NCBI GenBank assembly: GCA_949291455.1
Contig: CASEVQ010000006.1
Location: forward strand, 1-44,081
DNA length: 44,081 bases
Origin: an uncultured bacterium
GTDB taxonomy: Bacteria; Bacillota_I; Bacilli_A; RF39; UBA660
Direction of reading: 5' to 3'
The translations under genes and the position numbers were made by a program. The notes under the pieces were generated by a model. It ran no database searches, was not told the DNA's origin, and saw only the letters and a list, made by a program, of their open reading frames with translations. Position 1 is the stretch's first letter; the number at the start of each line of letters is the position of its first letter. Below are positions 32,794-42,136 of the stretch, piece by piece.

Positions 32794-32835
32794 AGGGAAT
32801 TAGTTCAGTTGGTAGAACGCAGGTCTCCAAAACCT
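32794..32835 (+). pseudogene. 5' half of host tRNA-Trp(CCA), interrupted (attL)
   Basis: AGGGAATTAGTTCAGTTGGTAGAACGCAGGTCTCCAAAACCT, followed by non-tRNA sequence. Confidence 0.9.
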
Positions 32836-32905
32836 TTGTTGTTTGATGACTTAATGCCATTTAACCCTTGAATTTATTAGCATTTGTTAAAATTATAGTT
32901 ATTAT

Positions 32906-32926
32906 TGTTGGCACCGTTGGTGGCAA
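32906..32926 (+). repeat. Tandem arm-type sites near attL (TGTTGGCAC, TGGTGGCAA; 12-bp period)
   Basis: Same motif and period as 41965-41985. Confidence 0.65.
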
Positions 32927-33028
32927 AATGTTAAATTTATAACAAATTAAATCAATATAAAACGATATGAAACTTGTTAAAAAGATGAGTTTTATGATAT
33001 AATTATTTTGCTCTTAAAGAGCACCTAT

Positions 33029-33102
33029 AGGGGTGTAATTTAGTGGTAAAATTTTGGTCTCCAAAACCAACTTCGGGAGTTCGACTCTCTCCACCCCTGC
33101 CA
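33029..33102 (+). tRNA. tRNA-Trp(CCA), island-encoded, complete
   Basis: 74 nt; acceptor AGGGGTG/CACCCCT, anticodon arm TTGGT-CTCCAAA-ACCAA, T arm GGGAG-TTCGACT-CTCTC, encoded CCA; extended -10 TGATATAAT at 32995-33003. Confidence 0.93.
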
Positions 33103-33112
33103 GAGAATTATC

Positions 33113-33151
33113 CGATTTTTCCTTTGATTTATAAGGGAAAATCGTTTTTTT
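33113..33151 (+). terminator. Terminator after the island tRNA
   Basis: CGATTTTTCCTT...AAGGGAAAATCG followed by a T-run. Confidence 0.7.
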
Positions 33152-33262
33152 ATCTAAAAATTTTCTTTTGTTATTTTCTTATTTTTTGTAATCGTTTTGT
33201 TCTATAATATACTTGCTATGTATTAAGAAAAGAGTTAACATTCACATAGAGAGGATGGAATT

Positions 33263-33478
33263 ATGAAGGAAGTAACGATTGAAATTAATGAATACCAATT
33301 GGTAATTTATCATACGATAAGGGCTTTATATGAAGACTATGGCTCTGCTCTACCACCAAAAATTGAAAAAGAATTAGAAAATTTTGTTAATTTGTTAGGC
33401 AATTATTTAGAAGATGATGTTGAAGGAGATATAGAGGAACAAATTTTTTATAGAAAAACTATTTATAAATATGAATAA
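33263..33478 (+). CDS. Small acidic hypothetical protein
   Basis: GAGGA RBS, 71 aa; no family recognised. Confidence 0.6.
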   Translation: MKEVTIEINEYQLVIYHTIRALYEDYGSALPPKIEKELENFVNLLGNYLEDDVEGDIEEQIFYRKTIYKYE

Positions 33479-33812
33479 ATGGGTGCTAAATGTGAATAAA
33501 TAGGTAATAAATATTATTATCTGCTTTTTTATGGTATAATATTTAAAGAATAAACTGATGAATAGTAATTTATAAGCAATCATGTGTATTTTTAAAAATT
33601 AATTATAAGAAAAATATAGTTCGATAAGTATGGGGTGGCTTGAAACTAGTTTATTTTCCCTTGTTTATCGTAAAGATAATGAACAACTGATAGAAAGATG
33701 AGTTTATACTACTAATTGTTAAAGAATTAAAGCGCAAAAGAAATTAATTTTATTTTTCGGTTATTATTCAAGACATTTGGAAGAAAAAAATAATAAGTGT
33801 GAGGGTATTGAT

Positions 33813-38704: not shown

Positions 38705-40311
38705 AAAATAAACTATTAAGAAAAAAAATAAGTTGTCTATTAGTTATTATTGCATCATTTAGTACTTTTTTCTTTTCAATAGCAAACGCCAATGCCCAAA
38801 CTTTAGGTAGTGCTCATAGAGATTTTGTAAATTCAACTAATTCAAATGTTGATGGACATACCGCATCTAGTCAATGGCGAGTTCATGATCGAGCTAACAC
38901 AGGAAATTTTGCAGAAGATTTAAAACAAGAATGGCAAAATTTATGTGATTCATTTAATTTTAAACCACGTGATAATTCTACATCTACTAATAATATGAAA
39001 CCAGTTGATGCAGTTAAACCATTTATTCAAAACAAAATAAAAGATGAAATTAAAAATACAAATTTAAATGATATAACAGATGCTATTAAAAATTTTGGTA
39101 GAAATTCTGATAGTCTAAAGGATGCAAGAGAAAATATAAGCCACGGTAATGAAATTAACTATAATAATCTAGTGGATAAGGCAAACAAATATATTAATAC
39201 AACAGAAAATATAGCTACCTTTACCAATTCAGAACACACTCATTCGTTTATGAGATGGACACATTATACTTTAAAAGGAATGGGACTTGGAACATCAAAT
39301 ATAAAACAAGCAAGTGCCGCGGATGCAGCAGTAAGTAATATGCTAGAACTTATGGGTAATGATGTATTTACCAATTATATGAATACTCACACCAATAAAC
39401 CTCTAGATCTTTTAGATGGAATAACAGAATATAGTGATAATATAGCTTATAAGATGATGTCAAACACATTTACACCGCAAGATATTGTAGGCCCCGACAA
39501 AGATGGAAGTCATGGAGCTTTAACGAGACCATTACCAACTATAAATGAACAAAACAATAAATTTTTACGAGAATTAAATATTATTAAAAAATTATCACAA
39601 GATATTTTTGATTACTTTACAAAAAATTTTATTAAAGATCTTAGTAAATTAGTTAACAAGTCATGGGATAGTTTATGGAAAAAGTTTTCTGATTTATTTA
39701 AAGCAGATACAAAAAAGAAAACCGGACCTGGTGATGCAAGAACACTTCCAGTTTTAGAAACGGCAATTAAACCAAATATTTATTTATATCCAATTGAAGA
39801 AGAAGAGATAATTGTTCGATTTAAAAATCCAGAATTGCTTGAAACTGTCATACCGGAATACAAAGATTTTTGGCATGCAACAGCAAAACCAAATGGAAAT
39901 CTTTTAATAGATGGAAAAAAATATGGATATTTATTCTATGAATCAGACACTTCAACATTACATATGCAAAAAGAAGAAGGTTGGATTATAAAACCAGAAA
40001 CAAAAAAAGAACAATTAACTGAAATTGCAACAAAATATAAATTTAACGAGCAAGAAACAAAAGACTTTGTTACCTTCTGGTGTACAAAGCTTGAAAATAA
40101 TGTATCATATGTTATGTATCCACAGCATACAGCAACAATAGATGCACTAATGCCTATGGAAATTACCCCAATACCTAATACCATTTTCCGAGTATGGTTC
40201 TTATTTGCTCCGGTATCTAGTGATTTAGGCACTTTTAAAGATCCAATAATTAGTCCGATAGAACGAAGTGGATTTACAGTAACAGAATGGGGTGGAATAG
40301 TTATGGATTAA
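38701..40311 (+). CDS. Secreted protein with conserved C-terminal KPxIYLYP...EWGG domain
   Basis: Signal peptide ending ANA-Q; KPNIYLYP, YLFYE, E..DFVTFW, RVWF, VTEWGG. Confidence 0.75.
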   Translation: MKNKLLRKKISCLLVIIASFSTFFFSIANANAQTLGSAHRDFVNSTNSNVDGHTASSQWRVHDRANTGNFAEDLKQEWQNLCDSFNFKPRDNSTSTNNMKPVDAVKPFIQNKIKDEIKNTNLNDITDAIKNFGRNSDSLKDARENISHGNEINYNNLVDKANKYINTTENIATFTNSEHTHSFMRWTHYTLKGMGLGTSNIKQASAADAAVSNMLELMGNDVFTNYMNTHTNKPLDLLDGITEYSDNIAYKMMSNTFTPQDIVGPDKDGSHGALTRPLPTINEQNNKFLRELNIIKKLSQDIFDYFTKNFIKDLSKLVNKSWDSLWKKFSDLFKADTKKKTGPGDARTLPVLETAIKPNIYLYPIEEEEIIVRFKNPELLETVIPEYKDFWHATAKPNGNLLIDGKKYGYLFYESDTSTLHMQKEEGWIIKPETKKEQLTEIATKYKFNEQETKDFVTFWCTKLENNVSYVMYPQHTATIDALMPMEITPIPNTIFRVWFLFAPVSSDLGTFKDPIISPIERSGFTVTEWGGIVMD

Positions 40312-40400
40312 AAAATTAATATATAAATATATAATAGAGAATAACAAAAATGCTAATTAATAAATATCAAAAAAACAATTTAAAAGAGAGGAGATATATT

Positions 40401-41216
40401 ATGAAAAAAATAATGATTTTAACTCTAATGCTAGTAATGATGTTTTCGCTTACTGCATGTGGTAATAAAGAAAATCAAAACAATAATACAAATAATAATG
40501 AACAAAAAACAGTTACAGATTTAGGATTTAAAGATGCTAAAGCAATACAAAATTTTGTAGATAATTTTAACGATAAATATCCTGGATATTATGCATACAT
40601 GGTAGAAAGTGATGCGAACACTTTAGAAGGAACTACTTTTAGTAGTCAAGGATATTCAGTTTATCGTATATTAATATGGAGCGATAGAAATGCAGAAAAT
40701 AACAAAGATAGTCTAGGAGACTATAATGGAAATAGTCATTTTAATAACTTAAATATAAGACTTATATACAATCCTTCAGGACAATTAGTTTTGCTTAAAA
40801 CATTGTACTTAGTTAGCAATAGTGTGTCTTATTTTAAGAATGATGATCAAGCAACTTATGATGCTATGATGGCTGTTTTAAATGAACTTTTTTCAAAAAA
40901 TACTGAAGAACAAAATCAAAAAATTTATGAAAATTTAAGATTACCTAAAGTTGAGGCTATTGATAGTTTTGAACTTAAAAGTGACTATGTAAGCAAAGTT
41001 GATTTAGTGGAAGACTTTATGACGCATTGTGGATATAAAGTTGGAGATTCAGTAAGCACAATATTAGAATATGACTTTAATGGTGAAAATTATCGTTTAA
41101 TAGTAAATCCTCTTGGTTCATATTCAAATAGTGAATATGTTATCAATTGGGATATAGCTTTTGCAACACCTGATGACTTTTTAGCATATGAAGCGGCATT
41201 AACTATGCCATCTTAA
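40401..41216 (+). CDS. Lipoprotein of unknown function
   Basis: MKK-hydrophobic-LTAC lipobox, Asn-rich linker; GAGGAG RBS before ATG 40401. Confidence 0.82.
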   Translation: MKKIMILTLMLVMMFSLTACGNKENQNNNTNNNEQKTVTDLGFKDAKAIQNFVDNFNDKYPGYYAYMVESDANTLEGTTFSSQGYSVYRILIWSDRNAENNKDSLGDYNGNSHFNNLNIRLIYNPSGQLVLLKTLYLVSNSVSYFKNDDQATYDAMMAVLNELFSKNTEEQNQKIYENLRLPKVEAIDSFELKSDYVSKVDLVEDFMTHCGYKVGDSVSTILEYDFNGENYRLIVNPLGSYSNSEYVINWDIAFATPDDFLAYEAALTMPS

Positions 41217-41598
41217 AATTAAAATATTAGTAGTTATACAAAAAGAAAAAATTTGGTATTTATTAAAATAAAATAAAGTGGCAGTTATGAAATTAAATGA
41301 TTAATTTAGTAATTGCCTTCTTTTACTGCATTAAATAAAAATATAATGACAAAAACTTATTATTAATACATAATAAAAAAAATCTAAAAATACAGTCAAT
41401 AAGTTTTTTATAATAATTCAAAATTATTAATTTATATAAATGTAATTATGTCAAAATGTATAATAATGTGAAAAAATAAATGATTATATGGAAACAATGA
41501 TGGCAGTTGAGGATAATAAATCAGATATACTGAATTTGTTCAATTATAACTGAAATTAATATAACATCAACGGATAATATTTATTATAATTTAGATAA

Positions 41599-41838
41599 AT
41601 TTATGGGAGAGCAGTTGATTCTTCATATTTATCAAGTGCAGTTGGCATAGTTAGAAATTATATGTTTGAAAAAGATCCTAATTTAAAAGATATTGCATCG
41701 TTAATAAATTCACTACCTGATAAAAATATCGAAACTTTCATTAAAATGTTAAATGATTTATCTAATGGAAATTTCTATGATATTTCTAAAATAGAAGATA
41801 TAGAACAATATGATAATTCAACACAATTTAAAAATTAA
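41599..41838 (+). pseudogene. Decayed gene fragment
   Basis: Open frame of about 79 codons (GRAVDSSYLSSAVGIVRNYMFEKDPNLK...) with no proper start; the upstream region has stops and frameshifts. Confidence 0.4.
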
Positions 41839-41964
41839 TTTGTTAATAGTTGTTGTATAAAAAAATATGATATAATATTTATACCAAGTCAAATATTGGG
41901 CATTGGGGTTCTTAATTGTGGCATAATAGTCCAAAAGACCATTGTTGTTTGTTTGAGAGTGGTC

Positions 41965-41985
41965 TGGTGGCAATTATGGTGGCAA
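41965..41985 (+). repeat. Tandem arm-type sites near attR (TGGTGGCAA x2)
   Basis: 41965-41973 and 41977-41985; variant TTGTGGCAT at 41916-41924. Confidence 0.65.
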
Positions 41986-42090
41986 ACCAATCCAATAAGC
42001 CCAAGTAAAATGATTTATTTATGTGTTTGTTATAAGTCGTTTTACTTGGATTTATGGGGGTTCAAGGTGTTTGGATGTGATTTAATAATT

Positions 42091-42136
42091 TCTCCAAAAC
42101 CTGATGTCGTGAGTTCAAGTCTTACATTCCCTGCCA
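42091..42136 (+). pseudogene. 3' half of host tRNA-Trp(CCA) (attR)
   Basis: TCTCCAAAACCTGATGTCGTGAGTTCAAGTCTTACATTCCCTGCCA; ATTCCCT pairs with AGGGAAT at 32794. Confidence 0.92.

Follow-up and report, generated by a model that had tools for sequence, protein, structure and literature searches.

A complete tRNA-Trp gene carried by an insert that splits the tRNA-Trp gene of an uncultured Bacilli host: a probable remnant of an integrative and conjugative element

The window, that is, the whole 44,081-nt stretch of DNA analyzed here, is contig C6 (CASEVQ010000006.1) of assembly G000 (GCA_949291455.1; 1.09 Mb, 72 contigs, 25% G+C, 87.7% complete), which represents an uncultured bacterium of the Bacilli. 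It holds an insert of 9,267 bp, referred to below as the island, which interrupts a tRNA-Trp(CCA) gene of the host at the anticodon loop and carries a complete tRNA-Trp(CCA) gene of its own. The host gene (76 nt) is designated type A and the element-borne gene (74 nt) type B; the positions of all features are collected in Table 1. The island is bounded by a 12-bp direct repeat that spans the 7-nt anticodon loop, with one stem base on its 5' side and 4 on its 3' side. The first 11 bases of this repeat, TCTCCAAAACC, are called the core. They occur three times in the 44 kb (at 32824, 33058 and 42091; 0.00 expected), the copy at 33058 being located within the anticodon loop of the type B tRNA itself.

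The 5' half of the host gene at the left attachment site (attL) and the 3' half at the right attachment site (attR) were joined by script, and the product folded as a clean 76-nt tRNA-Trp(CCA) cloverleaf. ARAGORN, run on each junction stretch alone, detected no tRNA at attL or attR. The attL half scored 27.4 bits against the Rfam tRNA model (gathering score 29), and this value was reached only with 37 nt skipped. With a block of identity as short as 12 bp, integration splits the host gene without rebuilding a tRNA at either junction. The sole tRNA found by ARAGORN in the window was the type B tRNA-Trp(CCA), which starts 193 bp inside the left junction and scored 63.6 bits against RF00005 with the full model covered. 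Types A and B have 13 identical bases around the anticodon. The original prediction, made from the letters alone, had described a 76-nt tRNA-Trp(CCA) split by the island and regenerated at neither junction, as well as a different, full-length 74-nt tRNA-Trp(CCA) inside the left end with its own extended -10 and terminator; the joined halves, ARAGORN, Rfam and a promoter and terminator scan agree with it on each of these points. The structure of the locus supports the view that the host tRNA-Trp was destroyed and has been replaced, presumably in function as well, by the full-length tRNA-Trp of the element. A tandem of the Mollicute type (UCA/CCA) was rejected because long open reading frames (ORFs) are found under translation table 11 and both genes have the anticodon CCA.

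The empty site was identified in two genomes of the same genus, G002 (a single closed contig) and G011, in both of which an intact type A gene differs by 1 base from the joined halves. Window positions 32723-32835 are matched at 94.7% in G002 and G011 and positions 42091-42194 at 84% in G002, and the two matches directly abut. The empty-site genomes also share the LysM gene upstream and, downstream, the sequence from 43563 on. The comparison with empty-site relatives that had been proposed at the outset thus produced an intact gene at the same LysM-flanked site. Public runs containing the stretch came from about 9 studies and were mostly labelled chicken gut metagenome. The left junction was bridged by an independent contig of 1,636 nt from a run of another study, covering 32792-34427 with 2 mismatches. 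A second independent contig (38010-42100) joined the cargo, the integrase remnant and the right arm, and ended inside the core at 42100.

The ends of the island were also found in other genera. G101, which belongs to a different genus of the same family, has the left arm, tRNA and terminator at 94% and the right arm at 82%, bounding a mini-element of ~1.4 kb with one ORF of 193 aa. The tRNA of this mini-element is identical to type B at all 74 positions, and the site of the mini-element is the anticodon loop of a different host tRNA-Trp, of the 74-nt type, where the same core flanks it on either side. Left arm and tRNA also occurred as more distant copies (68-76%) in G111, G266, G282, G258, G238 and G288. 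At 8 of the 10 loci examined, a complete tRNA-Trp lay 191-236 nt beyond a host 5' half; the host halves at those loci all differ, as expected from the different host genera. A complete tRNA-Trp stood at a fixed place next to attL in all nine aligned elements. The TGnTATAAT of the element tRNA promoter was kept in eight of these nine. When genomes were searched for two tRNA-Trp anticodon loops 215-245 nt apart, matches were obtained in 14 of 401 family genomes, each in a different genus (14 of 214); the pattern requires exact 10-mers at that spacing and therefore undercounts, G184 being one example that was missed. The reversed-pattern control gave 0 matches in the family genomes; outside the family, in 28 others of the class, the pattern itself matched 0 of 266 genomes.

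Right ends were available for three of the larger elements. In G266 ~35.6 kb separate the two halves of the host gene, while in G258 and G238 the right ends are on other contigs; at all three the acceptor strand of the host 3' half matches the host 5' half. Each right end consists of a tyrosine integrase of 530-544 aa (PF00589 plus an N-terminal SAM-like domain) that ends ~230 bp before the core, followed by the arm, the core and the host 3' half. The integrase presumably catalyzes recombination at the core. The ~35.6-kb G266 element encodes a coupling protein of a type IV secretion system (T4SS; E 1e-59), a MobL relaxase (8e-30), a VirB4-like ATPase and an ArdC-like protein, and no phage structural family was found among the 9 ORFs scanned. 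With an integrase, a relaxase, a coupling protein and a T4SS ATPase predicted between its attachment sites, the G266 element classes by gene content as an ICE (integrative conjugative element). No conjugation genes and no integrase or transposase ORF were found in the island of the window (ORF list and family scans), which makes it an apparent ICE derivative, not an ICE.

The arms and the right end of the island retain further traces of the ICE. The 9-mer TGGTGGCAA occurs 3 times in the window (0.09 expected), in the arms only and on one strand. Across the elements, repeats of the form TGGTGGCA(A) are conserved, singly in the left arm and as a tandem pair in the right arm, and these are putative arm-type integrase sites. 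The integrase remnant corresponds to residues 409-538 of the 544-aa G266 integrase (35% identity, E 1e-16 against this stretch), contains 4 in-frame stops and represents the last ~130 codons, the catalytic domain being gone. For the 71-aa ORF at the left end no Pfam family was found at cut-off; its counterparts in the G238 and G258 ICEs, the first ORFs after the tRNA, are 52% identical to each other. The middle of the island is of a different kind. The block 33817-41268 is 92% identical in two other contigs of metagenome-assembled genomes (MAGs; L039 and L040), where it is flanked by an IS3-type transposase gene and a helix-turn-helix (HTH) transposase-like gene, and where arms and tRNA are absent. 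The cargo operon thus looks to be a separate, separately mobile module that is unrelated to the ICE ends, and the island a mosaic of ICE ends, replacement tRNA and unrelated mobile cargo.

In L039 and L040 the IS3-family transposase gene follows the cargo operon, with a 749-aa protein containing TIR, TPR and SH3 domains encoded nearby, and the HTH transposase-like gene and a VanY-type peptidase gene precede it (neighboring genes at 7915-8706(-) and 12532-14781(-) of L039 and at 2191-3483(-) of L040). Elsewhere in G000, C14 (G000:C14:7138-15072) carries T4SS coupling-protein and VirB4-like genes whose products are 34% and 31% identical to those of the G266 ICE; G000 would accordingly hold another conjugative element. 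Between the -10 box of the element tRNA and the 5' end of the tRNA (33004-33028) there is a short perfect hairpin (GCTCTT / AAGAGC) that is conserved in G101, G266, G288, G258 and G238 and may be a processing or regulatory signal.

Table 1. Features of the split tRNA-Trp locus and of the island, in positions of the window
Feature	Position	Strand	Evidence or remarks
Promoter-like site preceding the orphan 5' half; host type A tRNA-Trp gene	32750..32778	+	TTGAAT-17-TAAAAT with TG
Orphan 5' half of host tRNA-Trp(CCA), type A; attL, host side	32794..32835	+	98% identity over 56 nt, upstream sequence included, in G002 and G011
Left copy of the 12-bp core repeat	32824..32835		Direct repeat
Left arm with one TGGTGGCAA putative arm-type integrase site (32918-32926)	32836..33028	+	94% to G101; 68-76% to G111, G266, G282, G258, G238, G288
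Promoter of the element tRNA, extended -10	32974..33003	+	TTGTTA-18-TATAAT with TG; 10/12 consensus matches
Element-borne complete tRNA-Trp(CCA), type B, 74 nt, CCA encoded	33029..33102	+	ARAGORN; RF00005; 74/74 identity to G101 element tRNA
Intrinsic terminator of the element tRNA	33113..33144	+	12-pair stem, then T run
71-aa ORF, apparent surviving left-end ICE backbone gene	33263..33478	+	35% identity to first post-tRNA ORF of the G238 ICE
Cargo operon	33777..41216	+	479-aa membrane protein with LuxR/GerE HTH; 823-aa and 293-aa TPR proteins; 536-aa protein; 288-aa predicted lipoprotein
Remnant of the 3' end of an ICE tyrosine integrase gene, pseudogene	41470..41811	+	tblastn
Right arm with two tandem TGGTGGCAA sites (41965-41973, 41977-41985)	41812..42090	+	82% to G101; conserved blocks with G266, G258, G238
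Right copy of the 12-bp core repeat	42091..42102		Direct repeat
Orphan 3' half of host tRNA-Trp including CCA; attR, host side	42103..42136	+	1 base off G002, G011
Terminator-like hairpin of the host tRNA gene, then T run	42146..42176	+	Read from sequence; palindrome detected there

The dependence of the host on the element tRNA was assessed from tRNA-Trp copy number. The genome-wide search for other tRNA-Trp genes that had been called for was made with ARAGORN and returned type B alone in the G000 assembly. Copies in other genomes were counted with a pattern that starts at the anticodon loop and extends to the encoded CCA end. One tRNA-Trp 3' segment each was found in G002 and G011, and exactly two each, one in the element tRNA and one in the dead attR half, in G101, G266, G258 and G238; the only intact tRNA-Trp found in these four genomes was that of the element. 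A single tRNA-Trp gene therefore looks like the norm in the lineage, and G000 probably depends on the type B tRNA. The original prediction had gone further and proposed that the tRNA could stabilize the island after loss of the integrase. The loss of the integrase is borne out by the remnant, but the stabilization holds for a small part of the island only. An intact element is not rendered addictive by its tRNA, since the host gene would be rebuilt on precise excision. Only after loss of the integrase does the tRNA count, and what it then protects is the ~300 bp that bear it and not the cargo.

Taken together, these data make it very probable that the 9.3-kb insert is a decayed, integrase-less derivative of an ICE family resident in an uncultured Bacilli family with genomes of ~1 Mb and 25% G+C. 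An ICE with a tyrosine integrase would insert at the anticodon loop of tRNA-Trp and split the host gene, which is not rebuilt. The complete tRNA-Trp(CCA) of the element, with its own promoter and terminator ~190 nt inside attL, would then take over the decoding of Trp codons. In G000 the conjugation genes and all but the last ~130 integrase codons would since have been lost and the middle filled by the separately mobile cargo operon, with both attachment sites and their arm-type repeats kept.

Several observations weigh against this reading. The ICE status derives from Pfam matches in a single full copy, that of G266 (9 ORFs); of the remaining full copies only the ends were inspected. G282 (L056, G282:C10:18000-23780, 2422-3231) encodes a different tyrosine integrase of 319 aa, ~25% identical to the ~540-aa enzymes, and it is located ~360 bp after the element tRNA and not at the far end, a placement that the model does not explain; the contig ends soon afterwards. 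At 87.7% completeness and with only 16 tRNAs detected, G000 may possess a second tRNA-Trp, and the copy-count pattern, which needs an exact loop and a CCTGCCA end, would miss an atypical tRNA-Trp. G164 carries the element yet has three tRNA-Trp 3' segments, with at least one further one in a full-length gene, so dependence on the element tRNA is not universal. No RNA run with the locus was among the matches listed (run X19, possibly RNA and probably DNA, covered only scattered pieces of the cargo), and it is from its sequence that we infer expression and charging of the element tRNA. Finally, attR was bridged by no public contig among the matches listed.

Some of these points would also suit other explanations. 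If an intact tRNA-Trp gene lay in the unassembled ~12% of G000, the element tRNA would be a dispensable passenger, with type B serving, for example, for dosage or for evasion of a tRNA-targeting defence. The incomplete assembly and its 16 tRNAs, the extra copies in G164 and the presence of both A-like and B-type genes in the congener G005 agree with such a role. It is nevertheless unlikely, given that the closed congener G002 and also G011 have a single tRNA-Trp each, that the element's copy is the only intact one found in four carriers with both ends assembled, and that all nine aligned elements keep a complete tRNA-Trp beside attL, as expected under selection to complement. A metagenome chimera joined through tRNA-Trp-like repeats might be suspected from the unbridged attR, from the sharing of tRNA sequences among community members and from the breaking of Logan contigs at the core. 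We consider this very improbable, as the two contigs from an independent run cross attL and reach the core on the right. In addition, the separately assembled G101 has the same arms at both of its junctions, and a single intact gene, lying between syntenic flanks, corresponds to the two halves in G002 and G011.

An origin by events that are not site-specific is equally improbable. Resident tRNA-Trp paralogues could have recombined through microhomology at the anticodon loop, around which A and B have their 13 identical bases, or a transposon could have dropped the cargo between them, the cargo operon being flanked by transposase-type genes in other MAGs. Neither event accords with arms and tRNA that move together between genera into unrelated host tRNA-Trp alleles, with arm-type repeats next to an integrase or its remnant, or with a core duplicated exactly at both ends; the island itself is without a transposase, and no terminal inverted repeats were noticed. 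A last possibility refines the preferred reading, a decayed ICE derivative, and does not replace it. Islands derived from ICEs that have ICE-type attachment sites and lack integrase and conjugation genes are known as cis-mobilizable elements (CIMEs). The island has this structure (attachment sites, core and arm repeats, no intact integrase or transfer genes), and its mobilization in trans is putative; replacement of an essential tRNA is, to our knowledge, not a known feature of CIMEs. As a non-autonomous but still mobile element it could be excised by the integrase of a related ICE acting in trans, and excision would restore the host tRNA. Both attachment sites, the core and the three arm repeats are intact, the existence in another genus of the 1.4-kb G101 mini-element, with its 94% and 82% arms, implies spread or repeated origin of integrase-less copies, and distantly related T4SS genes are present on C14. 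Continued mobility is still doubtful, if less so than a passenger tRNA. No cognate integrase was found in the G000 assembly; the best candidate, a 406-aa integrase on C2, was rejected as the cognate enzyme at only 25-27% identity to the ICE integrases. No credible empty-site or circle joint was found in the contigs of 4 runs (contigs drop rare forms), all joints listed having sides of 20-23 nt in AT-rich sequence.

The element tRNAs are themselves possible targets. All of them keep the full core, which is a consequence of the core being the conserved anticodon loop of tRNA-Trp. In G288 the order is: host 5' half; a TGGTGGCA-type left arm; the 5' half of a G266-like element tRNA; a different arm with TGTACGAAA repeats; and a complete third tRNA-Trp. 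About 46 kb further on, a gene encodes an integrase of 528 aa with just 27% identity to the others; after it come TGTACGAAA repeats, then the core and the host 3' half. This arrangement suggests that a second element family with the same strategy landed in the tRNA of the first, and that a core-to-core deletion then removed most of the first element. The proposal that a replacement tRNA protects from re-integration is contradicted by the retained core and by the G288 element tRNA, which is itself split. For a changed susceptibility to anticodon nucleases, the other effect proposed, no evidence was found.

Across species of the genus and family, two tRNA-Trp(CCA) alleles occupy the same LysM-flanked slot. 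Type A (76 nt) is found there in G000, G002, G011 and G004, and type B (74 nt) lies just downstream of the LysM gene in G001, G005, G009, G015 and G018; in G005, which is of the same genus, the A-like and B-type genes are on different contigs. We tentatively suggest, as a scenario with somewhat less than even chances, that the sole tRNA-Trp is a contested landing pad, to which rival ICE families bring replacements, landing in or evicting their predecessors as in G288, and at which decay leaves an element tRNA as the only one of the host. If this is correct, element-driven turnover would explain the occurrence of type A or type B at the same LysM locus in close relatives, and an essential component of translation would be routinely exchanged horizontally by conjugation.

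The nearest precedent is the tRNA-dependent lysogeny of actinobacteriophages (Fionnbharth K4, cluster L, Gaia and others; Guerrero-Bustamante & Hatfull, mBio 2024, PMC10865867). In that paper, a tyrosine integrase, an attB in a tRNA gene, a core of 8-17 bp, no rebuilt tRNA and a phage tRNA of the same isotype required for lysogen survival, as shown by genetics, are described, and it is said that the phenomenon may be wider, with prophage Lj965 of Lactobacillus johnsonii cited. The elements studied here agree in that attB overlaps the host tRNA gene, no tRNA is rebuilt across a short core (9-12 bp here), a complete tRNA of the same isotype is brought along, and arm-type sites flank the attP core. 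Tyrosine integrase genes stand beside attR in G266, G258, G238 and G288, and in the window a remnant only; their catalysis is presumed from sequence. Unlike those phage systems, which use tRNA-Lys, tRNA-Ile2 and tRNA-Leu, the target here is tRNA-Trp in uncultured Bacilli of ~1 Mb; the autonomous copies encode a relaxase, a coupling protein and a VirB4-like ATPase and are known as sequences; and a decayed integrase-less copy, mini-elements and nested insertions occur. Lj965, as cited there, is a Firmicutes element that reportedly does not rebuild the tRNA and encodes the cognate one, but it is a prophage and not conjugative. With conjugation genes in the G266 copy, the island appears to work like tRNA-dependent lysogeny without being a phage.

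Canonical tRNA-targeting islands restore the gene from an island-borne fragment (Islander database paper, PMC4383910). Insertion into a tRNA gene by a tyrosine integrase, crossover at the anticodon loop and a displaced tRNA fragment at the far end are shared with the islands described there. In those islands an intact gene stands at one junction; here identity is limited to 12 bp, both junctions are dead and a separate whole gene is supplied. A looser analogue is the archaeal tRNA-Thr, for which a report (PMC3293823) describes intron gain and tRNA fragments beside a recombinase-bearing insertion. No precedent among ICEs or genomic islands for tRNA-dependent integration was found in the literature, in which subscription journals and supplements were thinly covered, so that one may exist; among the 22 listed of the 23 papers using the term 'tRNA-dependent lysogeny', none was on conjugative elements, judged by title.

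The strategy is thus known in phages and is seen here in conjugative elements; it is not a new principle. 'Disrupt the tRNA and bring your own' would be extended from actinobacteriophages to conjugative elements, in a very different uncultured gut lineage with minimal tRNA redundancy. Later stages are seen as well, namely an integrase-less remnant with what is probably the only tRNA-Trp of its host, a 1.4-kb mini-element, and an element family inserted in the tRNA of another. Island finders that rely on a regenerated tRNA and a displaced fragment would miss or mis-bound such elements, and annotators will take the element tRNA for a normal host gene. A concrete route for the horizontal replacement of an essential tRNA gene is also suggested.

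Two further loci bear on the fate of such elements. In G184 (L062, G184:C18, 903-1167 and 4905-5886) only 191 nt separate the host 5' half from an element tRNA with 95% identity to type B, and the integrase gene is matched in three pieces in different frames with an in-frame TGA. No attR 3' half was found in the G184 genome, and this copy looks like another decayed element. In G291 (L061, G291:C97, 6395-6468) a tRNA-Trp gene immediately follows an ordinary-looking ORF (5840-6313), has a promoter-like sequence of its own and shows 99% identity to the element tRNA; no 5' half and no left arm were found upstream of it. G291 possibly represents the kind of host lineage whose tRNA the element captured, or else a fully domesticated copy.

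The LysM/tRNA-Trp locus varies on every side. Window positions 42195-43562, immediately downstream of the host tRNA terminator, encode a sigma-70 factor of the extracytoplasmic function (ECF) type (42308-42856) and an overlapping 228-aa ORF without a family match (42849-43535). This block is missing from G002 and G011, in which the terminator abuts sequence matching 43563 onward, and it adds a second indel to this hot spot. The interval from the LysM gene to the tRNA promoter holds ~7 kb in G002 (L031, G002:C1:854200-874199, 2877-9898) and ~4.4 kb in G011 (L032, G011:C21, 11243-15661) that are absent from G000; the additional sequence of G002 includes a second copy of the 3' part of the LysM gene (5000-5480, 91% identity). 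Near the end of the window (43588-44019, minus strand), a 143-aa ORF gave a weak match to a Doc/Fic-type toxin (TIGR01550, 25.7 bits, cut-off 38.65).

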